Virus record (IMG/VR): IMGVR_UViG_2534681675_000024
DNA: 16,949 nt
Reading direction: 5' to 3' (one strand)
From: a virus
Lineage: Duplodnaviria > Heunggongvirae > Uroviricota > Caudoviricetes
The stretch's first letter is position 1. Each line of letters starts with the position of its first letter. The translations under genes and the position numbers were made by a program. A model generated the notes under the pieces. The model saw nothing but the letters and a program-made list of their open reading frames with translations, did no database searches and had not been told where the DNA came from. This document shows positions 1,917 through 16,629 of the stretch, one piece after another.

Positions 1917-2273
1917 TCACTTTTCACGCCCCTCCAAAGCAATGGCGGGGCATTACCTGTTTACCCATCTCCACCAGCATAGATAATTCTCGCCCAGCTA
2001 TTGCTATATCTGTTCGGCTTAGTTCATCTGTAATCACCCCATCTCTAAAAGATACGCCAGCTATCATTAGCCATTTTAAGCCATCATGAGCCATTATAAA
2101 CCGACTCAACCAATTGAATAATAAAAGATAAAAAGAAATGTAAAAACATGATGAATGACGATGAAAGATATAACTCTTTGATAAAACAATGATTTTTTAA
2201 ACTGGTAACTAATTGAAAATAAAGAAAATAATTATCCCACCTGCATTTGCAATCTTTCAGTGGATCGGCATTT

Positions 2274-2306
2274 TTTCAATAGATTTATAATTTCTTTCAA
2301 TAGATT
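2274..2306 (+). promoter_or_regulatory. Candidate promoter/operator upstream of alpA: TATAAT flanked by two TTTCAATAGATT direct repeats
   Basis: The 12-bp motif TTTCAATAGATT occurs at 2274-2285 and 2295-2306 (21-bp spacing), bracketing a perfect TATAAT hexamer at 2286-2291, about 95 bp upstream of the alpA ATG. No good -35 hexamer is evident. Confidence 0.4.
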
Positions 2307-2386
2307 CTAGTCTTAATAGAAATACTGTATGGGCAACCACTAAACTTTAAGTAACTTCATGAGCTATCAGAGAGGTTACTAGAGAT

Positions 2387-2605
2387 ATGACAGCACACAA
2401 GCCAGCATCATCAGCTATCCCAACAACTGGATACATCCGTCGCTTTCGCATGCCGGAATTGCTAGGTGTTTCACTGCCTACTATTGATAGATGGGTTAAA
2501 AATGGCACTCTTCCACGCCCAGTGAAGCTAACAGATAACGTGACTGCGTTTGATGCGGTGGAAATTAATAACTGGCTGGCAGAACGCCGCGGGAAGGTGG
2601 CCTGA
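2387..2605 (+). CDS. alpA: AlpA-family helix-turn-helix transcriptional regulator (phage excisionase/activator-like)
   Basis: 72-aa ORF with the AlpA-type HTH segment RMPELLGVSLPTIDRWVKNGTLPRPVKL. Its stop overlaps the next gene's start (TGATG). Position just downstream of int is typical of AlpA in P4-like and PICI-like elements. Confidence 0.85.
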   Translation: MTAHKPASSAIPTTGYIRRFRMPELLGVSLPTIDRWVKNGTLPRPVKLTDNVTAFDAVEINNWLAERRGKVA

Positions 2606-3036
2606 TGGAAAAGAAAAACCGCCCATTACAGGCGGCTAATTCAGATATTCGCGTATCTGATATTACGCCCCTTACAAAATCCCTTCAAGCACCAAAGCGC
2701 ACACCGAAAAAGCATCGTGCCCGAGTCTATATGCTGCGTACTGGTATAGAGGGATGGACAGAAAATGACATTCTTCGCTACTGCCGTCTGTCTTCTGGTC
2801 GTAACTATGCAACAGAGTTAGAACGCCAGCTTGGAATCACTCTGGAGCGTATCGACGAAAAGAATCCTGATGGTATCGGAACACACCTTCGCTACCGTTT
2901 CTCCTGCCGTGGTGATGTTCTGAAAGTGATCACTCATGTTAACCATCTTGCGAGCATAAATGATCACAACGGACTTTCTCAGCAGGAAATTGCCGACATT
3001 CTGAAACTCTACCCGGACGCGTTTAACGCCGCCTAA
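2605..3036 (+). CDS. Hypothetical protein (143 aa), basic N-terminus, co-transcribed with alpA
   Basis: Start is translationally coupled to the alpA stop. Composition looks protein-like and the N-terminal region is basic (KRTPKKHRARVY). No recognisable domain. Confidence 0.65.
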   Translation: MEKKNRPLQAANSDIRVSDITPLTKSLQAPKRTPKKHRARVYMLRTGIEGWTENDILRYCRLSSGRNYATELERQLGITLERIDEKNPDGIGTHLRYRFSCRGDVLKVITHVNHLASINDHNGLSQQEIADILKLYPDAFNAA

Positions 3037-3048
3037 CGGAGACTGAAA

Positions 3049-3882
3049 ATGAACATCGAAAAAAGCAGATTAATTTCTGAGGCCGCCCCTCATCTGAACG
3101 CCTCTCTGGGCACAATTAACGGTAATGAATTTGCCGCAATTGTCCCGGTTATTCCTGGTCATATCGGTGGGCGTGAAACCAATATTGTTAGCGCAAAAGC
3201 GTTACACAAAGCGTTGGGCGTGGGAAAAGACTTCTCTACATGGATCACTGATCGCATCTCTGAATATGACTTCACCATTGGGCACGATTACTCAGTCCAT
3301 AAAACAATTTCCCCAAATTTGGGGAAAAGCCCGAATGGCGCGGCTTACAGCAAGATTAAGCACTCTGGCAGACCCGGCAAAGACTATCTGTTAAGTGTCG
3401 GAATGGCGAAAGAACTGGCAATGATCGAACGCAATGATCAGGGTCGCGCTATCCGTCGTTATTTCATCCAGTGCGAGGAAGAATTACAGCGTACCGTGCC
3501 TGAAATCGCCGCCCGCTATCGTCGCCAGCTAAAAGCCCGTATCAGTGCCGCAAACAACTTTAAGCCAATGTGCGATGCGCTGAACATGGCCCGTGCCGAG
3601 CAGGGGAAAACGACGCAGCAACACCACTACACAAACGAGAGCAATATGATTTCTCGTATCGTTCTTGGTGGGCTAACTGCTAAGCAGTGGGCGCGGATAA
3701 ATGGCTATTCTGGCGAACCTCGCGACCATATGAACGCAGAACAGCTTGAACACCTCTCATATCTCGAAAGCACCAATATCACGTTAATTGATATGGGCAT
3801 GGAATATGAGCAGCGCAAAGGAGAACTCACCCGCCTGTCGCAACGCTGGCTCGCCAAGCGTCTGGAGGCGGTCCATGTTTAA
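3049..3882 (+). CDS. Phage antirepressor-like protein (AntA/AntB-type N-terminal domain, Rha/KilAC-like C-terminal region)
   Basis: 277-aa ORF with GGAG about 8 nt upstream. The N-terminal segment SAKALHKALGVGKDFSTWITDRISEYDFTIGHDY matches the AntA-type antirepressor signature. The central segment YLLSVGMAKELAMIERNDQGRAIRRYFIQCEE resembles KilAC/Rha-type regulatory domains. Confidence 0.78.
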   Translation: MNIEKSRLISEAAPHLNASLGTINGNEFAAIVPVIPGHIGGRETNIVSAKALHKALGVGKDFSTWITDRISEYDFTIGHDYSVHKTISPNLGKSPNGAAYSKIKHSGRPGKDYLLSVGMAKELAMIERNDQGRAIRRYFIQCEEELQRTVPEIAARYRRQLKARISAANNFKPMCDALNMARAEQGKTTQQHHYTNESNMISRIVLGGLTAKQWARINGYSGEPRDHMNAEQLEHLSYLESTNITLIDMGMEYEQRKGELTRLSQRWLAKRLEAVHV

Positions 3883-4054
3883 GCCGACAGGAACACCACA
3901 ACCACAAAAACGCTACAAAGATGCCCACGGAGCACTCGTTACTGTCGAAAGCGTGTCTCACAACCGAGTGACGTTTTATCGCGACGGGTATCAATCGCCA
4001 TGCGTACAACCGCTGGCGCGTTTCATGAAGGAGTTCGCGGAGGTTAACCAATGA
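3875..4054 (+). CDS. Small hypothetical protein (59 aa)
   Basis: ATG at 3875 overlaps the antirepressor stop (ATGTTTAA), and its own stop overlaps the ATG at 4051. No domain recognised. Confidence 0.45.
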   Translation: MFKPTGTPQPQKRYKDAHGALVTVESVSHNRVTFYRDGYQSPCVQPLARFMKEFAEVNQ

Positions 4055-5082
4055 TACCCGTCCAGAAGAAGACATTTTCACTGGCTGGTATGTCTCCAAA
4101 ATCCAGCAATATGACGGCAAAGTCAGGCATTAATACAGCAGATACAAGCAAAGTTTATCATTTGCTGGTGGTCGGAACGGATGCCTTAACCATGCCAGAA
4201 ATCTCGGGCGATGATATTAGCGTTGAGAAGGTCAGCGGCTGCGCCAGAGAATTTCTGGTCGTAGATGACCTGTTCTGCTCGCGTAGTGACTCCACAAAAA
4301 TCTTCGTCCACGCGCGTGACGTTAACGAAATGAGCGCGATGTACTGTGCTTCTGGTGCTTCCAATAGCGAGTTTTCGGAGTCCATAAAAAAGAGCTTGCC
4401 GTTATGCGGCAACACGGTTTATGGTTATAAGGCACCTCATAAAACGGGTGCCGGGATTGGCCTCCCGCTGGAGTTATCGGCGATACATGACGCGCCAGCG
4501 TCTTTTTTTGTATCGGCGCACACGCACACCTTATCAATGGTGGGCTGTATGGGGCTACCTTCGGGTAGGCTGGTTTCCGATAACGCCAGTAAGGCCAACT
4601 CCGTACAGTCCACCGCCAGCAAGATTGGTCTCTTCTGCGGTGGTTATAACAAGCCAACGTTATCGGAGGATGCCACATGCTGGCTACTACCCCTACCCAA
4701 AAACCGCAATTTATCTGGATTATCGCCGCAGTTCGCCGCGATTGCCCGACAATTACCGCCAAAATTCATCATATTGCTGCCGAGTCTGAACGCGATGCTC
4801 GCCGTTCTCTGGTGCGCGATCACGTCTGCTTTTTTGCTGGTCGTATCCGCATGGAGGTGGCACATGATTAAAACCTACGATGTGCATATGGACCCCCTCG
4901 AACGCACAAGCCAGATCATCACACTGACAGAAGTGATTAATGACATTCTGGTGAGCAACTCTCCCTCACGAGACGAAAAACTGAAGGCGTTACTCGCGAT
5001 ATTGGATCTCGCCGTTCGTGACGTTCATTTCCTGCTGGAAGGTGGCGAAATGCCAGTAAAACGGGGGGCAACCAATGAATAA
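4051..5082 (+). CDS. Uncertain long ORF (343 codons); possibly several short genes or a partly non-coding leader
   Basis: The frame is open for 343 codons and has a good SD (GGAGG, 7 nt before ATG 4051). However, the first ~270 residues are unusually Ser/Cys/Trp-rich, the frame contains a terminator-like hairpin plus T7 run (4489-4509), and two internal starts have strong SDs: 4677 in another frame (GGAGGA) and 4864 in-frame (GGAGGTGG). Confidence 0.35.
4489..4509 (+). terminator. Terminator-like hairpin (GACGC-GCCA-GCGTC) followed by T7
   Basis: A 5-bp GC stem with a 4-nt loop is followed immediately by TTTTTTT. The stem is short, so function is uncertain. It lies inside the dubious 4051-5082 ORF. 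Confidence 0.3.
4864..5082 (+). CDS. Small hypothetical protein (72 aa), alternative in-frame start within the 4051-5082 ORF
   Basis: A strong SD (GGAGGTGG, 4853-4860) sits 3 nt before ATG 4864. The downstream sequence has ordinary helical-protein composition, and its stop overlaps the next start (ATGAATAA at 5075). Confidence 0.4.
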   Translation: MIKTYDVHMDPLERTSQIITLTEVINDILVSNSPSRDEKLKALLAILDLAVRDVHFLLEGGEMPVKRGATNE

Positions 5083-5269
5083 CTCAATTAATACCCCTCG
5101 CCTTACGTCCGCACTTCAATTAATCGAGCAAGCAGCGGCTGTCCTGGTTGCTGTCAGTCTTTCGGCTGAAGAAATGGACGCTACTGATGTCGTGGATGCG
5201 ATTAAAGCGTGCTCATCTTTGGTTAACGATGCCCGTGCAGAGCTGGTAATTCTTGGGGGTGAAAAATGA
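5075..5269 (+). CDS. Small hypothetical protein (64 aa)
   Basis: G-rich SD-like stretch upstream. Overlaps the upstream stop and the downstream start (ATGA at 5266). Ala/Leu-rich helical composition. Confidence 0.55.
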   Translation: MNNSINTPRLTSALQLIEQAAAVLVAVSLSAEEMDATDVVDAIKACSSLVNDARAELVILGGEK

Positions 5270-5529
5270 ATATCAACTTAATTTATCGTCATCCGTGTGA
5301 GCTGGAAATTGAATCATTGCTGAGCCGTGAAGAGCCATATCCAGACACATTCACTCTTGCAGATCGCACGACTGAACGGCTTACCAGAGCGCGCACAGGT
5401 CTGGTTCATGTGATGAATGAGATTCTTCCATCGGTGGGAGGGGAACAGGCGACAGTAATCACTAGCTGGCTACAAAAAGTTACCTCTCTGATAGATATCA
5501 GTTTAATCGATGCGGAGAGTGCGAAATGA
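5266..5529 (+). CDS. Small hypothetical protein (87 aa)
   Basis: SD GGGGGTGA before ATG 5266; ATGA overlaps at both ends (translational coupling). Confidence 0.6.
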   Translation: MNINLIYRHPCELEIESLLSREEPYPDTFTLADRTTERLTRARTGLVHVMNEILPSVGGEQATVITSWLQKVTSLIDISLIDAESAK

Positions 5530-5747
5530 CCAACATCCAGCTCATCGAAGCGCAATGTCGCATCGAACAGGTTCAGACTGTTTTAGGGTTCTGGCTTGAA
5601 GGGGCCAGCCCCAGCAACAGAGACAAGTTAATGATTGGCGCGGTTATGTCACTGCTCAATGGCGTACCAGAAGCTATTCAGGAAGCGGACGAATTGTTGG
5701 GCAAATATGAGTTACAGAATCATTCAGGCGAGGCGAAACATGAATAA
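5526..5747 (+). CDS. Small hypothetical protein (73 aa)
   Basis: Coupled to its neighbours at both ends (ATGA overlap upstream, ATGAATAA overlap downstream). N-terminus (MTNIQLIEAQ) resembles that of the 5075 ORF ([20 protein letters not shown]), suggesting possible paralogy. Confidence 0.6.
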   Translation: MTNIQLIEAQCRIEQVQTVLGFWLEGASPSNRDKLMIGAVMSLLNGVPEAIQEADELLGKYELQNHSGEAKHE

Positions 5748-6342
5748 TTTCTTAACATTCCATGCAGAAGCAACGCCTGACGGCGTAAACATCATGCACC
5801 GCAGCAACGATGGCATGACAGAACGCGTTGAGACCGTCTCATATATTGATGCCGTAAATCGTCTGGATGCCGGGGATTATGACGATAAACCAGATGAAGG
5901 CATGTTTATACATCTCGCTATTGCCAGTGGCGGCAACCAGGGATATTTCGATTACACATCACAGCATCACGTGATTATGTGGCGCTGGCTGATAGCAACA
6001 GCATTCATCAATGAAATGAGAAAGGAAAACGGCACCGTCAGCATTATTGATGACAGTGGCAATCATTCCGTGGTTTCTGTTTATTCCAATGGCATCGTCG
6101 CCATGCCGCTGTATCCAGTAGCAGAGCGCCTCGCTATGGCAAACAACATTGAGGGCGCAATGATCGAGAAATATGGTGTTGATGTCGGAACAAAGAATGC
6201 CATCATTTTTTACAGCAACATGTTCGATGTCGAACAGGGAGCACTCACTTCGTTTGGGCGAGAAGTGCTTGCCGATCTTCACAACAGCTTTATTGCCGAA
6301 CTAAACGAAAACGGCATCCCAGAAGCACCAGTGACGCACTAA
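5740..6342 (+). CDS. Hypothetical protein (200 aa), immediately upstream of the primase
   Basis: ATG 5740 overlaps the upstream stop (ATGAATAA). The ORF track's longer 5635 start is probably an over-extension. No domain recognised. Confidence 0.65.
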   Translation: MNNFLTFHAEATPDGVNIMHRSNDGMTERVETVSYIDAVNRLDAGDYDDKPDEGMFIHLAIASGGNQGYFDYTSQHHVIMWRWLIATAFINEMRKENGTVSIIDDSGNHSVVSVYSNGIVAMPLYPVAERLAMANNIEGAMIEKYGVDVGTKNAIIFYSNMFDVEQGALTSFGREVLADLHNSFIAELNENGIPEAPVTH

Positions 6343-6354
6343 ACGGGGGCCAGA

Positions 6355-8706
6355 ATGCGAAACATTGATCTTATCCGTCAGGTTATCAGTGCGTCTGAAA
6401 ACAACTGGCCTCATGTGCTGGGCTGTCTGAACATAAATGTCCCTGACTCTCCGCGCCGTCATGCTCCCTGCCCTGCATGTGGGGGCAAAGATCGATTCCG
6501 GTTCGACGACAACGGGCGCGGTAGCTTCATCTGTAATCAGTGCGGCGCTGGTGATGGGCTGGATTTAATTAAACGCGTAAATAACTGCGACACAACAGAG
6601 GCGGCGCTTCTTGCCGCTGATGTTCTGGGTATTGATTACCGGACAACGGAAACACCAGAAGCCACCAGCCAGAAACGGGAACAACTGGAAACCGAGCGCC
6701 AGCGACGCGAACAGGAGCGCCTGAAAAGGGCAGAGAAGGACGAACAACAAAGACGGGATACGTTTTCCCGTCAGTTTGATGACATGCGCAGAAAGGCTGT
6801 AAACGGCAAATCTGATTATCTGGTTGCGAAAGGGGTAGGTGATTTTACATTCCCCGTGTTGCCAGATGGATCTCTGTTGCTGGCGCTGGTGGATAAATCC
6901 GGCGCAGTCACAGCAGCACAGACTATTACCTCACATGGTGAAAAAAGACTCCTGACAGGTTCAGCAAAGCGGGGGGCGTATCACGCCATAAACGCACAGA
7001 AACGACCTCACAGCATCATAATTGCTGAGGGTGTGGCTACCGCCCTGTCGTGCCATTTAATTCGCCCTGACGCAATGACAGTGGCAGCAATCGACGCTGG
7101 CAACCTGTTGCCAGTAGCGGAAGTCATGCGCAGAACATATCCACAGGCACAAATCATCATTGCCGCAGATAACGATCACCAGCAAGGAAACTCCGAAAGT
7201 GGAGGGATCAACACGGGGAAAGATGCCGCAGAGAGGGCCGCTATTTCCGTAGCTGGCTGGGTGTCTCTGCCACCGACTGACTATAAAGCCGACTGGAACG
7301 ACTATCACCAACAACACGGGCTGGCGGCAGCCACAGCAGCATTTAAAGATTCGATGTACCAGCCACGGGGGAAAGGGGCGCAGGTGAAAAATCACAAACA
7401 GTCAGTCGGGGCGCTTAATGAGATCAGTTCTGGCGAGGTGTTAAGCGATGATGAAATTGCTGTCCTCAAAGAAATCAACCGGACGTTTACGCATGTCACC
7501 ATCGGCGGGAAACACAAGGTGGTGTCGCTAAAGCCTTCTCAAACCGGCGGTGTATCGCACGTTTTCGAGGATTTATCACAATTTCAGCATTATTTTCATC
7601 ATAAACCGAGAGTCGCCAGAAAGCTGGCGGGATCGGCGTGGCTGTCATGGAGTGGGAAGAACTACAAGCCAGGAGGCGTAGGATTTTATCCAGTACCAGA
7701 CAAATGCCCTGACGATGTTTTTAATCTGTATGAGGGGCTGGCACTGGAACCAATTGAAGGAGATTGCACGGTATACCTTAATCACCTGTTGCAGGTTGTC
7801 TGTGCCGGTAATGAAGAGGCATACCAATATCTTATCCAGTGGATGGCGCACATTATCCAAAAGCCTGATGAAAAACCGTCCGTGGCAATCGTGATGAAAT
7901 CTGTCCCGGGCACAGGGAAAGGCACAACGGTTAAACCGCTGCTGCAAATACTGGGGCAGTACGCCGCCCACATTAACGGGGCGGGACATATTTCAGGGCG
8001 CTTCAATTCAATACTTGCTAACAAGCTACTGGTATTTGCTGACGAAGTGACGATCCACAAGCCGTCTGAAGCTGACAGACTTAAAGCGATTATTAGCGAA
8101 CCGACGTTTAACCTTGAGCGCAAGGGAATTGATGCTGAACCAATGCCGAATTTTGCCCGGTTGATATTTGCCAGTAACAGCACACAGGTATTACAGGCGG
8201 GGATAAGAGAGCGCCGCTATCTCGTGCTTGAGCCATCTCCTGAAAAAGCACAGAGCCGGGAGTATTTTGATCGGCTGTACAGTTGGCTTAATGATGGCGG
8301 TGCCGCAAAGTTGCTTTGGCATCTTAAAGGGGTGGATCTCTCAGGTTTTGACCCTCAACGAGCGCCACAGACCGATGCCTTACGTGAAGAAATCTTGCTG
8401 GGGCTGTCTGGCGTTGAATTGTTTCTTTATGGCGAGCTAATCAATGAACCTCCGTTTAATGGCGAAGTCCGTTTGTTTGCAAAGGATATGGTTAGTCGAT
8501 TTGTAGCGTGGTCGCTTGAGCGTGGGGAAAAGCTTAAAGAGCCAGCAGCCAGATCACTACTGGGTAAATCACTTGCACAAATGGGGCTGGTGAAGCATGG
8601 AAGACCAGACCGAGGGAATGGCGTGTTCTACGAACTACCAGAGGTCGGAGTTCTACAGGCTGCGTTTGCCCGTCTGATCGGTATGGGGGGTTATGATGTT
8701 TTTTAA
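6355..8706 (+). CDS. Replicative primase-helicase (zinc-finger + Toprim primase domain, C-terminal P-loop NTPase; P4 alpha / D5-like)
   Basis: 783-aa ORF with a G-rich SD. It has an N-terminal zinc-binding pair (CPACGG ... CNQCG), a Toprim-like acidic core (IIIAEGVATALS and AADNDHQQGN), and a C-terminal Walker A-like loop (VPGTGKGTT) with a Walker B-like hhhhDE (LLVFADEV). Size is close to P4 alpha. Confidence 0.9.
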   Translation: MRNIDLIRQVISASENNWPHVLGCLNINVPDSPRRHAPCPACGGKDRFRFDDNGRGSFICNQCGAGDGLDLIKRVNNCDTTEAALLAADVLGIDYRTTETPEATSQKREQLETERQRREQERLKRAEKDEQQRRDTFSRQFDDMRRKAVNGKSDYLVAKGVGDFTFPVLPDGSLLLALVDKSGAVTAAQTITSHGEKRLLTGSAKRGAYHAINAQKRPHSIIIAEGVATALSCHLIRPDAMTVAAIDAGNLLPVAEVMRRTYPQAQIIIAADNDHQQGNSESGGINTGKDAAERAAISVAGWVSLPPTDYKADWNDYHQQHGLAAATAAFKDSMYQPRGKGAQVKNHKQSVGALNEISSGEVLSDDEIAVLKEINRTFTHVTIGGKHKVVSLKPSQTGGVSHVFEDLSQFQHYFHHKPRVARKLAGSAWLSWSGKNYKPGGVGFYPVPDKCPDDVFNLYEGLALEPIEGDCTVYLNHLLQVVCAGNEEAYQYLIQWMAHIIQKPDEKPSVAIVMKSVPGTGKGTTVKPLLQILGQYAAHINGAGHISGRFNSILANKLLVFADEVTIHKPSEADRLKAIISEPTFNLERKGIDAEPMPNFARLIFASNSTQVLQAGIRERRYLVLEPSPEKAQSREYFDRLYSWLNDGGAAKLLWHLKGVDLSGFDPQRAPQTDALREEILLGLSGVELFLYGELINEPPFNGEVRLFAKDMVSRFVAWSLERGEKLKEPAARSLLGKSLAQMGLVKHGRPDRGNGVFYELPEVGVLQAAFARLIGMGGYDVF

Positions 8707-8730: not shown

Positions 8731-8840
8731 TTTTTACCTGTACCACCTATACCACTTTGCTAATTCAGTATTAAAAACAGTGCGTTATAGTGGTACAGGT
8801 CAATATCTTACCTATACCAGACCTGTACCACCTATACCAT
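8731..8840. repeat. Iteron-like repeat cluster 1, immediately 3' of the primase-helicase gene (candidate ori)
   Basis: CCTGTACCACCTATACCA occurs at 8737-8754 and 8822-8839. An inverted copy TGGTACAGGT lies at 8791-8800 and an extra CCTATACCA at 8811-8819. The same core family recurs in cluster 2. Confidence 0.6.
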
Positions 8841-9113: not shown

Positions 9114-9840
9114 CTATTGCATACCGCAGGGAATGACCAGAACGGAGCGCGAAGAATTAAAAAGTTTCGCTACACAGTGCGGGAATGCTGGCGACATCCA
9201 AAGTCTGGAACGCACTTTAATTATGATTGCGCACTGGATGCGTCAGGGGCAAAGGGTTTCATTTACTGAATATGCCAGCCAGTGGACAGAGGCACAGCGC
9301 GAACGGAGCGACGGTAATCACTCAACACCCGAAATGGCGAAGCAATGGCCTTTCAGTGGTAAACGCTGTATCAGTCCCGGTGGTTCAGATTATTACCCTG
9401 CTGGTGTGGGAGATGAGCCATGTTGTGACGAGACTGAAATCCGCCACGCAGTGACAGTAATTACCGCTGAATACCCACAATTTAACCTTGACGGACTGGC
9501 GCTCCACAACCGGAATGCGGACTGGGAAAACCCGCTTGATAACCCGTCATTTATCGTATCGGCGAAAAGCTGCCTGAGATGGATCAGAGACAACGGGATG
9601 AGTAATGCCCAGATTGAGAGCTTCCCGCAGGATAACCCCACATCTGACACGTTGAAGCATGAAGTGGAGCGATATAACCAGATAAACCACCAGCACAGTG
9701 ATCACCCGCACTATATCCCCAACGGAGCATTTATTGCGGCGATGGTGGCAAGCGGCTACAAGGTTAAGCCAGCGGGAAGAATGAACGCATTTTTCAATAT
9801 TTCAAAAAAGGGATTATGTGCTGCTATGGGTAAAAATTAA
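9103..9840 (+). CDS. Hypothetical protein (245 aa)
   Basis: SD GAGAGG before ATG 9103, coupled to the upstream gene. Protein-like composition, no recognisable domain. Confidence 0.7.
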   Translation: MNNNYCIPQGMTRTEREELKSFATQCGNAGDIQSLERTLIMIAHWMRQGQRVSFTEYASQWTEAQRERSDGNHSTPEMAKQWPFSGKRCISPGGSDYYPAGVGDEPCCDETEIRHAVTVITAEYPQFNLDGLALHNRNADWENPLDNPSFIVSAKSCLRWIRDNGMSNAQIESFPQDNPTSDTLKHEVERYNQINHQHSDHPHYIPNGAFIAAMVASGYKVKPAGRMNAFFNISKKGLCAAMGKN

Positions 9841-9845
9841 ATAAA

Positions 9846-9949
9846 TGGTACAGGTCTGTACAGGTGGGGAGAGGTCATTTTTACCCACCTGTACCACCTA
9901 CAGGCCGCGTCACACAAGGGTTTGTGACATGGTGGTACAGGTGGTACAG
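9846..9949. repeat. Iteron-like repeat cluster 2 (same family as cluster 1) plus a GTCACA-N8-TGTGAC palindrome
   Basis: TGGTACAGGT at 9846-9855, CTGTACAGGTGG at 9856-9867, ACCTGTACCACCTA at 9887-9900, and tandem inverted GGTGGTACAGGTGGTACAG at 9931-9949. A palindrome GTCACACAAGGGTTTGTGAC lies at 9909-9928. TTTTTACC precedes the repeat in both clusters. Confidence 0.6.
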
Positions 9950-10314
9950 CAAAAACAGCGATTTTCTTTATAAGGTATGTTTTGCTCATCTGGCAGGCGG
10001 AGGTATTCGCTGCGGTTTGGCACATAGCCCAGAACAGCAAAGAGTTTTACGAGACTTTTGTAAAATCCAGTGTACAAGGGCGTGACGTTTTTGAAGGAGA
10101 GACCTACGAAATTTTCGTAGTTCAAAAAATAGCCTCTGAGATGTTGTTATGCCTGTTCAGCAAACCATCCGCATAGCTGATCGCGAATCAAATTACCAAT
10201 GGAGCCAGAAGCAAGGGCAGAACTGGAAAGCGCCTGCCGTGAAGAGTAATGCGACATCGTAAATATAGTTTTTAGAGTCCATAAAAAACCTGTCAAAACC
10301 TGACATACAGAACG

Positions 10315-10442: not shown

Positions 10443-10616
10443 ATGGCTATTTCAGTAAAGCCAGTATTGATAAGTGAGAAGCAAATGGAAGCGATAAAGA
10501 AAATTCAGGAGGAGCAGCGTAAAAAATCAGAGGTAGGAGTTGCGCCAACGATCCACGAAATTGCTCGGGGATTAATGGATAAGGCGCTGGCTTACACTTT
10601 AACTGGACGTGGGTAA
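10443..10616 (+). CDS. Small hypothetical protein (57 aa), first gene of a three-gene operon
   Basis: Not in the supplied ORF track (below its length threshold). ATG 10443 is preceded by a strong SD (AAGGGGG). The stop at 10614-10616 lies 4 nt before the next ATG (10621). Helical composition; a regulatory role is only a guess. Confidence 0.5.
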
Positions 10617-10620
10617 ATTT

Positions 10621-12087
10621 ATGGCTACTTGGCAACAAGGAATCAACTCAGGCGGTTTTCTGGCTGGCATCGGTACGCAAAATGAGAATGCGCCAAAGGC
10701 AAGCGACATTAACGCAACGCTTGGTCTGATCCGCGAAAACAATGAACTGGCTCGCTCAGGTGCAAATAACGTTGGTCTGACCGCGTTACGTGGTCTGGCT
10801 GGAGTTGCTGATATTTATAAGCAGGAACAGCAACAGAAAGCGATTAATGCGTTCAATAAGGTTCACGCTGATGCATGGGCTTCTGGTGATCCATCGGGAC
10901 TATTTAAGTTTGCCCAGGAAAATCCAGCGTTTGTTGCACAGGTACAACAGGCGTTTTCTGGTCTTAATGATCAGCAACGCAACGATATGGGCGATTTAGC
11001 CATGAGGGCTAACGTCGCTCTTTCTCAGGGACCGGAAGCCTACAGTAAATTCATTACTGACAACAAGGACAGGTTAAATCGCGTTGGTGCTAATGCTGAC
11101 TGGATGATTCAGACAGGTATCCAGAATCCAGAGCAGCTATCACACATGCTGACTACTATGTCTCTCGGTGCGCTTGGACCAGAAAAGGCGTTTGCTGTTC
11201 AGGATAAGATGGTTGGTCGTGAGATTGACCGAGGCCAGCTGGCAGAGACAATCCGCAGCAATAAGGCTGGAGAGGCACTTCAGGCGAGAGGGCAGGATAT
11301 TAGCCGAGCAAATGCGTTAACGTCAGCATATGCACCAACAGCCGCAATGCAGAATTACAATCAGTACGCGCAAATGTTAAAGGCGGACCCAGAGGGGGCG
11401 GCGGCATTTGCGGCAGCGGCTGGAATTAATACAAACGCCAAAAAATTAATGAGTGTTAGAGAAAACGATGATGGCACTGTCACAAAATACTACACAGACG
11501 GAAGTGAAGAGCAGGGAAAACTAAACCAGCCAATATCTGGAGATGGGTTTCGTCCAATAGCTTTGCCAACAGCCCAAAAGATCATGGAAAAGTCGCCAGA
11601 AGGGGCTAAAAAAGCTGCTGGATTTGCATACAGGGTTAGGGATGCTCTTGATTCAATAGATACACTGAAAGACCAGCTTAGCCCACAGCGAGTGGCGATC
11701 ATTAATAATGCTTTGGGTAATGGGACGCTGGCTAACTTAACGCTCAGCCCAGCAGAGCAGCAATACGTTGTTAATGCTAATGACGCAATAATGGCAATAC
11801 TCCGTCAGGAAACAGGGGCATCTATCCTACCAGCTGAAATGTCCAAATATTATCAAATGTATTTCCCTCAGCCTGGTGATTCCACAAAAACCATTGATAC
11901 CAAGCGCCGGAAGATGGAAAACCAGTTCAATTCGCTGAAAGCTGCTTCTGGTCGAGCTTATGATGCTTTGCGGGTTATTTCAGCAGTTGACAGAGGAACT
12001 TCTTCTTCGTCGCAGACATTGCCGCAATCTGAGCAGGTATCACAGCCAGCAGCCAGCAGTAATTTTTCTTCACTATGGGGTGATTAA
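10621..12087 (+). CDS. Large hypothetical protein (488 aa), Cys-free, Ala/Gln/Asn/Gly-rich, predicted mostly alpha-helical
   Basis: ATG 10621 chosen over the track's 10609. No Cys, few aromatics, Q/A-rich low-complexity stretches, and no enzymatic motif I can identify. Its stop overlaps the next start (TAATG). Confidence 0.8.
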
Positions 12088-14192
12088 TGGCTAAAGCATG
12101 GAAAGATGTTATCGCTTCTCCACAGTATCAGGCGTTAGCACCAGAACAAAAAGCGCAGGCTCAGGAGCAATACTTCAATGAAGTCGTGGCCCCGCAAGCC
12201 GGAGAAAGTGTAGAGCAGGCTAAGCAGGCTTTTTATGCTGCCTATCCACTACCATCAACGAATGAAATAAACCGATCCCAATCAGCAACTCAAAATATTC
12301 AACATACATCATCTGATAATTCTCTTGCGTCAGGGTATGCAAAGTTAGCTACTCAGCAAAGAGAGGGGCTTGAGCGTTCAGCAGAACAGGGAGCCAGTCT
12401 TGGGGCTGCGATGCGCGATGCTATAACAGGCGAAAGCCGAATGACTCCAGAGATGGAGAGACTGCAAAATGTCGACCTTGCCCCAGAGTTAACCTCACTC
12501 AGCATGGATGCTCTAAAAGCTCGATGGTCTCAACTTTTCGGCTCTGACGCATCTCAGGAAAAGATTCTTCAGAGCATGGGAGCGAAATTAAGGCAGGATG
12601 AGAAGGGTAACACTATCGTTTCCCTGCCATCCGGTGATTATGCTCTGAACAAGCCGGGTTTATCGCCGCAAGACGTGGCATCGTTTCTGGCTAATGCGCT
12701 GGCGTTTACACCAGCGGGCAGGGCTGGAACGGTGCTTGGTGCCATAGGAAAATCAGCAGCTACAGATTTAGCACTACAGGGAGCCACCAGCCTTGCTGGT
12801 GGAGAAGATATTGATCCGTTACAAACGGTAATTTCTGCTGGCATTGGTGGTATTGGTAAGGGGCTGGAAAATACAGCGAGTGCGGTTTCGAGGGCTGTTC
12901 GTGGTGATATGTCGCCTGAAGCAAAGGCTGCTGTCGACTTTGCATCGGAAAGAAATCTGCCGTTAATGACCAGTGACATGCTGAAAGATAAAACCTTTAT
13001 GCAGAGTCAGGCTCAGACATTAGGCGAAAGAGTTCCTTTTTTTGGAACCGGTAAGAATCGGCTGAATCAACAACAAGCACGAGAAAATTTAGTCAGAACA
13101 TTTAGCGATGGTCTGGGGGGAATTTCAGATAAACAGCTTTATGAGTCTGCGACTAAAGGGCAGCAAAAATTCATTGAGGCAGCAGGAAAGCGATATAACC
13201 GCATAATTGACGCTATGGGGGATACCCCTGTCGATCTCTCAAACACGGTAAAAACTATCGACAATCAGATTGCCGTGTTAAGCCGCCCTGGCAAATCTCA
13301 GGATAGAGCCGCGGTAAAAGTCTTGCAGCAATTTAAAGACGATATCACCAGCGGACCAAATGACCTGCGTCTGGCGAGGGAAAACAGAACCGATCTTCGA
13401 AAGCGATTTATAGCGTCATCTGACACTGTTGATAAAGATACGCTCCAGAAAGCCAGCGATATTATCTACAAGGCATATACGGCGGATATGAAAAAAGCCG
13501 TAGCCAAAAATCTTGGAGCAGACGAAGCCATTAATATGGCAAGGGTTGATCGCTCATGGTCTAAATTCAATGACATGATGGGAAGAACGCGCGTTCAAAA
13601 GGCAATAGCCAGCGGCAAGGCCACGCCTGAGGATGTAACAAAACTCGTTTTTAGCCAAAGCCCATCAGAACGTTCTCAGCTTTACAGGCTTCTGGATGAC
13701 AATGGTAGGCAAAACGCACGAGCAGCTATAGTTCAGAATGCTGTAGATAAGGCGACTGATCCGTCTGGAAATATCAGTGTTGAGAAGTTTATTAATGCGT
13801 TACACCGGAACAGGAAGCAATCAGCAACTTTCTTTAAAGGCGTACATGGAAAGGAACTGGACGGCGTTATTAAATACCTCAACGATACAAGACACGCGGC
13901 AAAAGCGAACGTTCAAAACTTAAATGGTCAGCAGCTTTATGGATTGTTAGTTGGTGGTGGCATCATAAACGCAGCAGTATTAGCGGGGATGCTAAAAACG
14001 GCTGCGTTTGTTGTTCCTGCTGCTGGTGCCGTAGGCGGAGCAGCGAAGGCATACGAAAGCCCTGTTATACGAAATGCCTTGTTACGTCTGGCAAATACGC
14101 CAAAAGGTAGCACAGCATATGACAGAGCGATCAGTACGGTCACACAATCGCTCACCAGAGTCGCACAGGCATCACAAAAAGAATCTCAATAA
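12087..14192 (+). CDS. Large hypothetical protein (701 aa), Cys-free, helical, with a C-terminal Gly/Ala-rich hydrophobic hairpin
   Basis: Long uninterrupted ORF coupled to the upstream gene. The segment LYGLLVGGGIINAAVLAGMLKTAAFVVPAAGAVGGAAKAY (about nt 13934-14056) looks like a membrane-insertion hairpin. GIGKG and GAIGKS do not fit true Walker A spacing. Confidence 0.85.
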   Translation: MAKAWKDVIASPQYQALAPEQKAQAQEQYFNEVVAPQAGESVEQAKQAFYAAYPLPSTNEINRSQSATQNIQHTSSDNSLASGYAKLATQQREGLERSAEQGASLGAAMRDAITGESRMTPEMERLQNVDLAPELTSLSMDALKARWSQLFGSDASQEKILQSMGAKLRQDEKGNTIVSLPSGDYALNKPGLSPQDVASFLANALAFTPAGRAGTVLGAIGKSAATDLALQGATSLAGGEDIDPLQTVISAGIGGIGKGLENTASAVSRAVRGDMSPEAKAAVDFASERNLPLMTSDMLKDKTFMQSQAQTLGERVPFFGTGKNRLNQQQARENLVRTFSDGLGGISDKQLYESATKGQQKFIEAAGKRYNRIIDAMGDTPVDLSNTVKTIDNQIAVLSRPGKSQDRAAVKVLQQFKDDITSGPNDLRLARENRTDLRKRFIASSDTVDKDTLQKASDIIYKAYTADMKKAVAKNLGADEAINMARVDRSWSKFNDMMGRTRVQKAIASGKATPEDVTKLVFSQSPSERSQLYRLLDDNGRQNARAAIVQNAVDKATDPSGNISVEKFINALHRNRKQSATFFKGVHGKELDGVIKYLNDTRHAAKANVQNLNGQQLYGLLVGGGIINAAVLAGMLKTAAFVVPAAGAVGGAAKAYESPVIRNALLRLANTPKGSTAYDRAISTVTQSLTRVAQASQKESQ

Positions 14193-14211: not shown

Positions 14212-14826
14212 TTAAATATCTCTGCTGTCTCCATTAGGAAATAAAAGATAATATGGATTTGCCTTTCTTGCTCTCCTTGCTTCACCTGGATACCTGTTAG
14301 TCAGTAGCTTGCATAATGAGCAGAGAACAACACTCAAGAAAATTCCGAATGAGAAGATCAATATCTCACCAAAAATCAATGGCGATATTAAATTTTCAGG
14401 ATTTAATGATAAGTCAATGTTAAAAACATATTGAGCAATACCAGTAAGTATCAATAATATAATCCCTATGGAATACATTGCTGTTTCCCAAACATCAGAC
14501 AGTCTATTTTTGAATTTTTCGCTGGAGTAGTAGTTTGTTATAAAGTCAGAAAAATCACTCTCATATGCATCATCTTTAGGTGATGTTAGAAATCCTCTGT
14601 CTCTCCATACCTTCTCCCAATTAGTCGATTCTTTTTTTAAGGAAAAATAAATATGTATTGCCAAAAGGATAGCCAAAATTGGTGTTAGCTCTAAAAAATA
14701 GAATGTTATGGAATAAATAATACTGCCATGTTCAAACTCATCTGGGACTATCATGTATGCACAAAAATAAATTGAAAAGTACACCATGCAGATAGTTAGC
14801 AATTCTTTAGTATCTTTTCTGCTCAC
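14212..14826 (-). CDS. Integral membrane protein (about 204 aa, four predicted TM helices), strongly AT-rich
   Basis: Four hydrophobic stretches of about 20 residues each, with a basic C-terminal tail (RRARK). GTG start at 14826 is preceded by SD AAGGGGG; an alternative ATG is at 14787. The gene is markedly AT-rich relative to its neighbours and converges on the 701-aa gene with only 19 bp between stops. Confidence 0.8.
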   Translation of the reverse strand: MSRKDTKELLTICMVYFSIYFCAYMIVPDEFEHGSIIYSITFYFLELTPILAILLAIHIYFSLKKESTNWEKVWRDRGFLTSPKDDAYESDFSDFITNYYSSEKFKNRLSDVWETAMYSIGIILLILTGIAQYVFNIDLSLNPENLISPLIFGEILIFSFGIFLSVVLCSLCKLLTNRYPGEARRARKANPYYLLFPNGDSRDI

Positions 14827-15626: not shown

Positions 15627-16082
15627 TTATACGCTGACCTTACAATCAATCACCGCTTTTAACTTTTCAGCATTGCTTCCCTGACGCTTCCACGCGCTGT
15701 AAATATCTTTATCCCACGCTTTACCAGCTTTTGTTTGATAGCCTGCTTCATTGATCCGTTCAGCTATCACACGCCCATTATCAAATCCCTGTTGGATGGT
15801 ATCGGCAATGATCTTTATAACTGCCGTTTCGTTATATGGTTTTGGTGGGATGTTCGGCTTTCCGGCAATAAGCGACGCAGCGGCTTTTTCCATGCGCTCC
15901 ACCAGCCCAAGCATTCGTGAATCAATAGACTTTTCCGGCTGCCCCAGCTTCATGCGAATCGCATCAACAAGCCAAGAGGTTTTATCTCCTCCAGAAGCGA
16001 GAACAGACCGATTAAACTCATCCTGCAATTCAGATGGGATGCGGAACGCGATCAGATTAGATTTGCTCATTGCAAAGACCAT
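15627..16082 (-). CDS. Ribbon-helix-helix (Arc/CopG-like) DNA-binding protein with a C-terminal recombinase-like helical domain (151 aa)
   Basis: The N-terminus has a classic RHH pattern (LIAFRIPSELQDEFNRSVLASGGDKTSWLVDAIRMKL). The C-terminal segment GRVIAERINEAGYQTKAGKAWDKDIYSAWKR resembles the recombinase-domain motif of serine recombinases, but there is no catalytic domain. Start could be 16082 or 16070; no clear SD. Confidence 0.7.
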   Translation of the reverse strand: MVFAMSKSNLIAFRIPSELQDEFNRSVLASGGDKTSWLVDAIRMKLGQPEKSIDSRMLGLVERMEKAAASLIAGKPNIPPKPYNETAVIKIIADTIQQGFDNGRVIAERINEAGYQTKAGKAWDKDIYSAWKRQGSNAEKLKAVIDCKVSV

Positions 16083-16183
16083 ATCAGTGAGTAATATCCA
16101 TACAGTATACCACTGTATAACACTGTTATACGCTCAAATATCAGCCAGAAAATAACAGACCAATCACAAATCTATCGCTGTGT

Positions 16184-16306
16184 TGTTGGTTCAGAGCTGG
16201 GCTGTGTTGGTTCAAAATGAGTTGATGTTGGTTCAATATTTTAGAAAAAACACAATAAAAACAACGCTCTTTACAAATTGAACCAACTGAACCAACTGAA
16301 CCAACA
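16184..16306. promoter_or_regulatory. Operator/iteron array: three TGTTGGTTCA direct repeats at 21-bp spacing plus three tandem inverted TGAACCAAC copies
   Basis: Direct copies at 16184-16193, 16205-16214 and 16226-16235. After an AT-rich spacer, TGAACCAAC repeats sit at 16279-16287, 16288-16296 and 16297-16305. A TATAAT hexamer at 16323-16328 and SD GAGAGG precede the perC-like ATG. Confidence 0.7.
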
Positions 16307-16341
16307 CCTTTTTGCTTATCTATATAATCTGAGAGGCAGAA

Positions 16342-16629
16342 ATGATAAAGGACAGGAAAGCTGAAGAGCTGGAGTCAAAAGGGCTATACCGGAGAGCTGC
16401 CGCGCGATGGGCAGAAGTCATGATGCTGGCAGATGGCGATAAAGAACGTGAACATGCAGCAAACAGACGCTCTGAATGTATCCGTAAGGCGGCACGCCCA
16501 CCAGCAACTACAGACAGATTCGGAGATTTAAGACAGGCAGTTAAGCGGACTCATTCGGCTCTTGGTATGGATGAGGAAGCGAGAGGGTACTTCAGGCGTT
16601 ATCGCGATAAAGATTGCCAGAGACAGTAA
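16342..16629 (+). CDS. PerC-family transcriptional regulator-like protein (95 aa)
   Basis: Size and the N-terminal motif ESKGLYRRAAARWAEVM resemble PerC/Pch-family regulators known from EPEC/EHEC plasmids and prophages. TATAAT and an SD lie upstream. Confidence 0.7.
   Translation: MIKDRKAEELESKGLYRRAAARWAEVMMLADGDKEREHAANRRSECIRKAARPPATTDRFGDLRQAVKRTHSALGMDEEARGYFRRYRDKDCQRQ

Follow-up and report, generated by a model that had tools for sequence, protein, structure and literature searches.

Introduction

How helper phages switch on alpA, the master activator gene of Gram-negative phage-inducible chromosomal islands (PICIs), has been an open question since 2018. The alpA promoter (PalpA) of the prototype island EcCICFT073 is activated by AlpA itself and induced by helper phages, with the inducer left unidentified (PMC6092414). 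EcCIMP1, a validated PICI mobilised by the P22-like phage Kapi1, behaves similarly: an alpA reporter spanning −449 to +50 is induced by the helper and not by DNA damage (mitomycin C) alone, and AlpA is needed for full output (PMC11773190). According to both papers, the spacer between int and alpA drives helper-induced, SOS-independent, AlpA-autoactivated transcription in these islands, and the phage-encoded alpA inducer and the cis elements are called unknown (PMC11773190, PMC6092414). Our literature search found no later paper naming the alpA inducer or the cis elements. Upstream of the PLL promoter of satellite P4, P2 Cox binds and activates P4, with cox boxes spaced 10–11 bp apart (PMC3936717), and sites of recombination directionality factors (RDFs) are described as direct repeats spaced by one helical turn (PMC7498355). 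Here we analyse the corresponding spacer, positions 1917–2386, of a 16,949-nucleotide Caudoviricetes DNA (IMG/VR record IMGVR_UViG_2534681675_000024), the full length of which is called the window below. This 470-bp spacer is reduced to discrete mutable elements: an array, a candidate site for integration host factor (IHF), a group of four proximal sites, a putative −10 hexamer and an inverted repeat in the leader. With a probability of about one half, we propose from these elements that 1917–2386 is a composite control region of the alpA operon, combining an activator-dependent promoter with an excisionase-type array.

Results

Architecture of the int–alpA spacer

The spacer lies between int with an accessory gene, ORF216 (ORF, open reading frame), and a co-oriented AlpA-family gene, as seen in the ORFs, in Pfam matches and in a 100%-identical RefSeq locus. 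Using AlpA and ORF216 as scan queries, we gathered 126 related loci, numbered with the prefix L, and aligned the spacer class across the E. coli lineage, L002, Klebsiella-type loci, L064, L087 and L088. Relatives from other genera retain a footprint made up of the array, a block around the IHF-consensus site, the spacing of the proximal sites R1–R4, the block CACTAAACT and the leader repeat, and the remaining spacer is variable. A preliminary description of this DNA had proposed an alpA control region with a phased array and a promoter flanked by a repeat pair. The AlpA-family gene, the PICI context and the conserved sets of repeats uphold the control region, and the array and repeat pair stand; the promoter assignment is probably wrong, and the layout was incomplete, lacking R1, R4, the IHF-consensus site, the −10-like block and the leader repeat. 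The elements of the spacer upstream of the leader are as follows.

1928–1951, plus strand: stem-loop GCCCC..GGGGC directly 3′ of the ORF216 stop codon; RNA fold −15.1 kcal/mol, z −2.5; no U-run.
2059–2098, plus strand: distal period-10 array of four units, AGCTATCATT, AGCCATTTTA, AGCCATCATG and AGCCATTATA.
2100–2235, no strand: AT-rich spacer between the distal array and the proximal sites, 22% G+C, mostly unconserved except for 2164–2185.
2171–2183, minus strand: IHF-consensus site TATCAAAGAGTTA (consensus WATCAANNNNTTR), within the conserved block AAAGATrTAA..TTGATAA.
2253–2265, plus strand: R1, TCTTTCAGTGGAT, a degenerate copy with its centre some 94 bp upstream of the inferred start (about −94); relatives have TTTCAATGGAA or TTTCAATAGAT at the aligned place.
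2272–2285, plus strand: R2, TTTTTCAATAGATT, the first repeat of the preliminary description, centred at about −75.
2286–2291, plus strand: TATAAT, between R2 and R3, unconserved outside the E. coli lineage.
2293–2306, plus strand: R3, TCTTTCAATAGATT, the second repeat of the preliminary description, centred at about −54.
2311–2323, plus strand: R4, TCTTAATAGAAAT (TCACTGGAA in Klebsiella-type loci), 16 bp after R3, overlapping the −35 position and centred at about −36.
2341–2346, plus strand: TAAACT, the −10 candidate, inside the conserved block CACTAAACT (2338–2346); inferred start at about 2353.

The G+C content falls from 47% in the whole window to 34.5% in 1917–2386 and to 22% in 2100–2235. 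When the region was shuffled 5000 times with its dinucleotides preserved, two shuffles contained a hexamer occurring three times at a period of 10–11, and six an exact direct repeat of at least 12 nt within 30 bp; the repeats are real and not a chance result of AT-richness. The stem-loop at 1928–1951 is possibly a weak terminator of the int–ORF216 transcript. It is poorly conserved beyond the E. coli lineage, and L006 has a 19-nt insertion directly after it.

Proximal sites and the candidate alpA promoter

Four TTTCAAWRGAW sites, not two, lie within 2253–2323. Their spacing of 19, 21 and 16 bp is conserved across genera and is identical in L064, L003, L015, L080 and L085; Klebsiella-type loci have the same 19 bp between R1 and R2 as the window, and TnGAA...CTG of R4 is kept in six of six lineages. 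Downstream of these sites, the −10-like hexamer reads TAAACT, TACACT, TAGACT or TAATCT in relatives, with T1, A2 and T6 invariant in all lineages. The −35 that goes with it, TAGAAA or TGGAAT at a distance of 18 bp, is a weak one, and the absence of the hexamer from the promoter scan list is expected because the promoter proposed here is activator-dependent. On this pattern of conservation TAAACT is the best candidate for the alpA −10. The layout of the R sites is typical of an activator-dependent promoter, which fits at least as well as an operator, and R1–R4 are the best candidates for the place where a helper-phage signal, or the co-inherited ORF216 protein, acts. A blastn search of 2040–2386 against 50,697 phage records returned chance-level matches only, and a scan of IMG/VR with a degenerate two-copy R pattern had unrelated AT-rich contigs among the matches listed. 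Judged by eye, a sigma-54 reading of CTGGAA..CTG was rejected: its spacing does not suit such a promoter, and the sequence is TAGAA in the E. coli lineage.

The preliminary description had instead taken the TATAAT at 2286–2291 as the alpA promoter, bracketed by two operator-like direct repeats 21 bp apart. Its coordinates were exact, the 12-mer TTTCAATAGATT occurring at 2274–2285 and 2295–2306. Developed into a model, this reading makes R1–R4 operators for a repressor relieved by the helper phage in the manner of Stl, with ORF216 as the candidate repressor. That a perfect −10 sits exactly between identical 12-mers speaks for it, as does the extent of the R sites, which over −94 to −36 would occlude RNA polymerase. 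ORF216, moreover, is confined to this spacer class whatever the integrase type, and it overlaps the int stop codon and so would be made in the quiescent state. The TATAAT, however, has GATCGG at its −35 position (17-bp spacing), which does not make a sigma-70 −10/−35 pair at a spacing of 16–18 bp; it lacks a TG extension and is missing from the promoter scan list. Nor is it conserved where the R sites persist, its counterpart in L002, Klebsiella-type loci, L087, L088 and other lineages reading TTTTAG, ATGATA, ATTATG, TTTTGT or CCTATT. Nothing marks ORF216 as a DNA-binding protein (Pfam, NCBIfam, PHROG function, PDB, fold), and published work finds activator rather than repressor logic in Gram-negative satellites (PMC6092414). 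Occlusion of polymerase by a repressor at the R sites is possible, and we regard the whole model as unlikely, though it survives better than the other alternatives considered below. The TATAAT itself is probably not the main promoter, and possibly a lineage-specific secondary −10.

A distal period-10 array and its shared box

The preliminary description placed three AGCCAT-containing units at 2068–2100 with a period of about 10–11 bp. They are indeed present and strictly 10 bp apart, at 2069–2074, 2079–2084 and 2089–2094, and a fourth, degenerate unit, AGCTAT, begins at 2059. Four units at exactly 10 bp surpass the three direct repeats one helical turn apart by which an RDF array is recognised. 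AGCCAT occurs 16 times in the window with no other such cluster, and Tandem Repeats Finder reports period 10 (3.1 copies) and period 20 (2.0 copies) at 2059–2099. L002, Klebsiella-type loci and L088 have period-10 arrays at the same place, with a drifted unit sequence and variable copy number, giving a unit consensus over relatives of AGYCRTCATR. All tandem arrays upstream of alpA or vis in the elements compared have a period of 10; the other arrays listed for the window have periods of 7, 9, 10, 13 and 16.

The box of the array recurs at the attachment site. In 36 kb of L001, the 12-mer TCATSAGCYATY has four copies against 0.06 expected: one each in the attachment arm (121 bp 5′ of int), the array, the loop of the alpA leader and alpA codons 8–11. 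The shorter AGCYATCA has seven copies, all on the plus strand and six of them between the left end of the island and the alpA ATG. The arm boxes of L001 (15896 and 15964–15976) have the crossover point on one side and four GTGTACA repeats on the other. These repeats, four on the int side and two at the far end of the island (end regions, L001 15896–16084 and 34100–34260), are probably integrase arm sites, because copies occur at the right end too. In phage lambda, the Xis sites sit between the core and the integrase arm sites. The left-end arm layout is kept in elements with other integrases and another chromosomal target, and the sharing of a box between array and arm is replicated in EcCICFT073: there the first 14-mer of the array, ACAACGTGAAACAA, recurs exactly once within 15.5 kb, against 0.01 expected, and this copy lies in inverted orientation in the arm upstream of int.

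Because the boxes recur in the attachment arm and the alpA leader, the array is a candidate nucleation site of the excisionase type, and it is most likely a tandem docking site for an excisionase-type (RDF) winged-helix protein. Its units (AGCYAT... on the plus strand, ...ATRGCT on the minus) do not match the P2 cox-box consensus TTAAA(G/C)NC(A/C), so the array does not qualify as a target of Cox as such. AlpA itself is probably the most economical candidate binder, and the box copies in array, leader and arm together suggest that AlpA activates its own promoter here.

The main alternative binder is the helper phage's own excisionase or Cox-like protein, which would activate alpA in trans. P2 Cox on P4 PLL sets a precedent, excisionase cross-talk has been reported among EcCIMP1, an integrative and conjugative element and the helper Kapi1, and L048 has an identical AlpA with no array. 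The box, however, is also in the satellite's own arm and alpA leader, where sites of its own directionality factor are expected, and none of the 50,697 phage records shares the sequence by blastn. We consider a helper excisionase improbable, and somewhat more so than a repressor.

IHF-consensus site

The IHF consensus has two matches in the 17-kb window, one of them at 2171–2183. At the aligned position the match is perfect in the window, in Klebsiella-type loci and in L088, and has one mismatch in L002; the surrounding block, 2164–2185, is the conservation peak of the alignment. By its consensus match and positional conservation this is a candidate IHF site. On either side of it lie the direct repeats AACCAATTGAA (2108–2118) and AACTAATTGAA (2207–2217), 99 bp apart, which resemble the R motif in reverse complement (TTCAATTGGTT versus TTCAATAGATT) and are weakly conserved in relatives.

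The alpA leader repeat

Just before alpA lies an inverted repeat that covers the ribosome-binding site.

2345–2384, plus strand: leader inverted repeat; RNA fold −14.6 kcal/mol, z −3.3.
2351–2358 and 2372–2379, plus strand: inner arms GTAACTTC and GAGGTTAC; the outer arms are CTTTA and TAGAG.
2362–2369, plus strand: loop box AGCTATCA, of the arm type; TAACGACGCAACAA in more distant AlpA groups.
2372–2375, plus strand: ribosome-binding site GAGG, within the 3′ arm; the alpA ATG is at 2387.
2387–2605, plus strand: alpA, 72 aa; Pfam Phage_AlpA PF05930, 26.5 bits; stop codon overlapping the ATG of a 143-aa gene.
2408–2419, plus strand: further box copy TCATCAGCTATC, inside alpA.

Nearly all members of the AlpA subfamily have the leader in the canonical form CCCGTAAC-N13-23-GTTACGGG, with the ribosome-binding site abutting or entering the 3′ arm and the ATG 4–6 nt beyond the arm. 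Over 35 distinct sequences, six of the ten leader pairs have changed on both sides; 78.8% of cells are paired, compared with at most 45% when partners are slid, and the covariation score was reached by none of 500 shuffles. These compensatory changes would be counted identically for a DNA palindrome. A loop length of 13–23 nt, an excess of G-U over A-C (10 versus 4) and the swapping of outer arms in the lineage of the window while pairing held favour an RNA hairpin; the −10-like hexamers adjoining the 5′ arm in many classes, the arm-type box in the loop and the chromosomal target, which reads CTCGTAAC, favour a DNA site or a start further upstream. We judge an RNA hairpin that gates translation to be fairly probable, and a DNA site a considerably weaker candidate. 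No Rfam family reached its gathering score across 1850–2650, and permissive thresholds gave nothing credible either, the best match being a CRISPR repeat model at an E-value of 0.04, well below threshold. The alpA gene of K-12 CP4-57 does not have the GTAAC leader repeat, and start-site data from K-12 are not transferable for this reason.

Proposed mechanism

In the mechanism that we infer, together with its binding partners, transcription start and direction of regulation, transcription would begin at about 2353 from a weak promoter with the −10 TAAACT (2341–2346) and a poor −35. This promoter would depend on a factor bound at the four phased sites R1–R4 (2253–2323), with R4 over the −35 position. 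These sites would receive the helper-phage signal, or possibly the ORF216 protein. About 255–295 bp upstream of the start, the array (2059–2098) would present four head-to-tail 10-bp boxes on one helix face, and the IHF site could bend the AT-rich spacer so as to deliver the array to the promoter. AlpA bound there would provide the positive autoregulation known for AlpA, the same logic as that of the P2 Cox boxes upstream of vis in P4. The leader stem-loop, which buries the ribosome-binding site, would then act as a second gate, probably a translational one.

Several observations weigh against this proposal. L048 AlpA is 100% identical, yet the array and R1–R4 are absent within 3 kb, while the arm boxes and leader box are kept, so that in some elements AlpA function does not depend on the array. 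The arm box is matched more poorly by the units of Klebsiella-type loci (AGTCGTCATA, GTCGTTyTGT) than by the E. coli units, and an IHF consensus might occur by chance in AT-rich DNA. The co-occurrence of this spacer class with ORF216 (see below) is equally explained by plain linkage or by ORF216 as the binder. Finally, only 4 nt separate the end of the proposed −10 from the inner 5′ arm of the leader, and the hexamer runs into the outer arm. A start at about 2353 would yield a transcript without the outer pairs, which covary in relatives; either the start would lie further upstream, or the leader repeat would act as DNA.

Other explanations of the spacer

An AT-rich spacer silenced by H-NS, with repeats made by slippage and alpA controlled elsewhere, would require no specific architecture. 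The very low G+C content and the differing array copy number among close relatives are in keeping with it, and so is the R core TCAATAGATT, which agrees at 8 of 10 positions with the H-NS nucleation motif, tCGATAAATT. Against it stand arrays of exactly period 10 in unrelated elements, R spacing of 19/21/16 kept across genera and a motif common to the attachment arm far above chance, and among eight E. coli-lineage variants a single indel falls in the motifs. We give this explanation little credence.

Less credible still is a replication origin with iterons beside an AT-rich unwinding stretch, as in the P4 ori near vis. Phased direct repeats do adjoin a 22% G+C stretch, a feature that is not origin-specific; the primase here is P4-alpha-like; and the P4 record annotates ori, including three 10-bp 'type 2 repeats', directly upstream of vis. 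These repeats (NC_001609 9176–9205) are three period-10 units about 150 bp upstream of vis, reading TTAAAGTCA, TTAAAGCCA and TTAAAGCAA on the plus strand of the record, and they fit the cox-box consensus and not the alpha-binding octamer. In the window, the primase-associated ACCTRTACCA iterons are elsewhere, with zero copies in 1917–2386, and an origin in the spacer was rejected on that ground. Six perfect copies lie at 8736–8839, just 3′ of the primase gene, and 1.1 kb further on, at 9846–9951, are three perfect copies (to 9942) and two copies with two mismatches, in both orientations. The two clusters flank a 245-aa ORF and are probably the ori/crr pair of the P4-alpha-like primase. Their position 3′ of the primase matches the ori location downstream of pri given for characterised Gram-negative satellites (PMC6092414).

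A small gene or RNA on the minus strand can be dismissed: a 61-aa ORF does exist at 1924–2109, its start over the AGCCAT units (ATGGCT in reverse), with a promoter-like site on that strand at 2260–2231, but the ORF is frameshifted in most of the near-identical E. coli-lineage variants, is missing from L002 and L003 and matches nothing in PHROG; the promoter-like site is unconserved, and no Rfam family matches.

alpA, ORF216 and the variable upstream DNA

AlpA matches the PDB entry 8c3t ('AlpA family phage regulatory protein') at an E-value of 0.0016; a literature search for a paper on this structure found nothing relevant. An analogy with the Pseudomonas AlpA antiterminator was rejected, since that protein has at least eight helices and contact residues up to 142, compared with the 72 aa here. 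When AlpA relatives of 58–100% identity are compared, their DNA ahead of the leader sorts into about 21 clusters unrelated to one another, with the break just before the leader repeat, and L048 has its identical AlpA behind a wholly different upstream sequence.

The spacer class with array and R sites co-occurs perfectly with ORF216, independent of integrase type. ORF216 has no sequence match in Pfam, NCBIfam or PDB, and its PHROG match is a family of unknown function; its AlphaFold model (pLDDT, the predicted local distance difference test, of 66) has no PDB fold match at E ≤ 0.001, and an exhaustive profile search collected 34 relatives, none leading to an annotation. As a recognisable DNA-binding regulator ORF216 was set aside, the family, structure and profile searches having given nothing. 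In other classes the slot between int and alpA holds unrelated genes of 293–326 aa with no family match (L048 2014–2895, L066 1919–2899, L092 1951–2889), two of which have their N-terminal 42 residues in common. Each is followed by a hairpin and then by only about 50–100 bp before alpA. The slot is a variable-gene hotspot.

A bolder idea, which we hold as a long shot, is that the DNA from int to the leader is a swappable sensor cassette, comprising here a three-part switch new to satellites: R1–R4, array and leader. Its basis is the AlpA subfamily (58–100% identity) standing behind some 20 unrelated upstream sequences. The four phased sites would read a helper-phage or ORF216 signal; the IHF-looped array of excisionase boxes borrowed from the arm would lock the switch on through AlpA feedback; and the leader, built of att-like motifs (RTAAC arms, compare the target CTCGTAAC), would gate translation or bind Int or AlpA. 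Were this true, the excision machinery and induction would physically be one device.

The host satellite and its genomic setting

The window opens with a tyrosine integrase gene (int, 1–1269), followed by ORF216 (216 aa, with no function assigned) at 1266–1916, which overlaps the int stop codon. All genes of the order int, ORF216, spacer, AlpA-family gene and P4-alpha-like primase (ORFs, Pfam) are co-oriented, and alpA is followed by the translationally coupled 143-aa gene, an AntA-domain gene, an Ash/Icd zone, the primase and P22-type ejection genes. As expected of a PICI, the element of about 18 kb has int, alpA and primase and lacks capsid, tail and lysis genes; its phage genes are limited to the ejection-protein genes, captured from a P22-like phage. 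Identity to EcCIMP1 is 87–96% over 6 kb from base 2595 on (93.7% for 2595–6340), the homology beginning in the 3′ end region of alpA, and sequence comparison found no counterpart of bases 1–2594 in EcCIMP1. The satellite in the window is EcCIMP1-like and sits at the stop codon of yicC, and the module that it has from int through ORF216 and the spacer to alpA bears no relation to the EcCIMP1 module; the spacers of EcCIMP1 and EcCICFT073 are not homologous to this one. The preliminary description was thus right to recognise a Gram-negative PICI with an AlpA-family gene downstream of the spacer (Pfam PF05930, EcCIMP1 backbone identity).

At ≥90% identity, 111 of 5426 complete E. coli genomes carry the spacer. 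The neighbours of the island in the 100%-identical locus are yicC and dinD, and comparison with the empty K-12 site (L253) places the crossover point at the yicC stop codon. The chromosomal target sequence is GAATAAC TCGTAAC, and CTCGTAAC is also a variant of the 5′ arm of the alpA leader. The island restores TAA at yicC and brings its own terminator (GCCCGCGAAATATCGGGCTTTTTT). L002 (CACSKA010000004.1) is a contig titled Chryseobacterium sp. 18061, yet it bears this enterobacterial island beside a yicC-like gene end; the assembly is probably mislabelled or contaminated.

Other features of the window

On the minus strand, positions 4199–4314 share about 92% identity with the surroundings of the pac site in gene 3 (small terminase) of phage P22. 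Within them, a pac-like 22-mer (4284–4305) matches the annotated P22-pbi pac at 17 of 22 positions, with 85 nearly identical flanking nucleotides. The stretch lies inside an 'ash family' ORF, within the EcCIMP1-like part 2595–6340, and may explain specific packaging by P22-like helpers. The phrase 'pac site' is absent from the main text of the EcCIMP1 paper (PMC11773190). Two Rfam matches at gathering score, isrK (4432–4508, plus strand, 64 bits) and C4 antisense RNA (4533–4620, plus strand, 77 bits), stand side by side within the annotated Ash ORF, upstream of an Icd-like region, in a zone that looks like an immunity-RNA zone of the P1/P7 immI or P4 cI type.

Homologues of P22 ejection proteins occupy 10609–14192 (Inj_translocase, E-value 4e-118; a 701-aa DNA-transfer/transglycosylase protein). 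They are followed at 14212–14826, on the opposite strand, by a weak SieA-like exclusion gene, and RefSeq has an Abi-family gene further right. Upstream of a PerC-family gene (16342–16629), positions 16181–16305 contain three copies of TGAACCAAC with a period of 9, and TGTTGGTTCA copies in inverted orientation lie close by. Positions 16205–16312 are 83% identical to DNA that directly follows the primase in EcCIMP1, where another copy lies beside perC; 16181–16305 may be an additional origin, a fossil one, or else a shared regulator site.

Discussion

The resolution of the spacer into separate elements makes Gram-negative satellite induction directly testable. A specific prediction follows from the identity of the boxes in array and attachment arm, namely that AlpA should bind the array. 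The presence of the spacer in 111 of 5426 genomes, together with a PerC-family regulator and phage-exclusion genes, means that the induction logic bears on gene transfer in clinical and farm isolates. The region is of a known kind, a helper-responsive vis/alpA promoter with an excisionase-box array, as in P4, and the variant described here is new. Box sharing between arm and array in EcCICFT073 and the echo in P4 suggest a general design for satellite induction switches.

P4 has the same gene order, with int, spacer, a gene of the AlpA/Vis family, an immunity-RNA zone and an alpha-type primase. Similarly, both elements have a head-to-tail run of three or four 10-bp units, all on the same side of the helix, ahead of the vis/alpA promoter, and a proximal activator site, putative in the window, is followed by a weak promoter, which in P4 is switched on by the helper. 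The units, however, are unrelated (AGCYATCAT here, TTAAAGNCA in P4), and the distance from array to ATG is about 300 bp here compared with about 150 bp in P4. In place of a TGT-N12-ACA Ogr/Delta site, the spacer has four TTTCAAWRGAW sites, and the alpha-binding iterons, which in P4 lie within the same spacer, are not found in it.

EcCICFT073 likewise has a spacer, of 365 bp, with a period-10 array (ACAACnnnnn) directly after int, a second period-10 run about 45–70 bp before alpA and an AT-rich middle. In E. coli CFT073 (L250), period-10 arrays lie on either side of int (7838–7870 and 9188–9241), and the run GACACAATCC is just before alpA (9456–9483); a term search of PMC6092414 returned no passage that mentions these arrays, and the paper does not describe the PalpA cis elements. 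Unlike the window, EcCICFT073 has another AlpA allele and integrase, no GTAAC leader repeat and no ORF216, and its spacer shows no sequence similarity. EcCIMP1 is alike in the backbone from the 143-aa gene on (94% identity), in the position of its spacer and in its P22-like helper Kapi1, which the P22 gene-3/pac-like segment and P22-type ejection genes of the window recall. In contrast, the int, spacer and alpA modules are non-homologous, EcCIMP1 has no ORF216, and it occupies a tRNA-Thr site instead of the yicC stop codon.

The RDF arrays of P2 Cox at Pc, 186 Apl at pR-pL and att, and lambda Xis (X1-X1.5-X2) are also direct repeats at helical-turn spacing, with one box serving arm and promoter and an IHF site nearby. 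They differ in that they mostly repress their own phage promoters, whereas activation of alpA would be expected here. The Stl-operator region of the Staphylococcus aureus pathogenicity islands (SaPIs), which are Gram-positive PICIs, is comparable in that a spacer beside int acts as the control region and ties satellite induction to a protein of the helper phage. SaPIs, however, have a divergent repressor gene with operators, whereas the genes here are co-oriented with no detectable repressor fold, and the literature describes an activator logic for Gram-negative satellites (PMC6092414).

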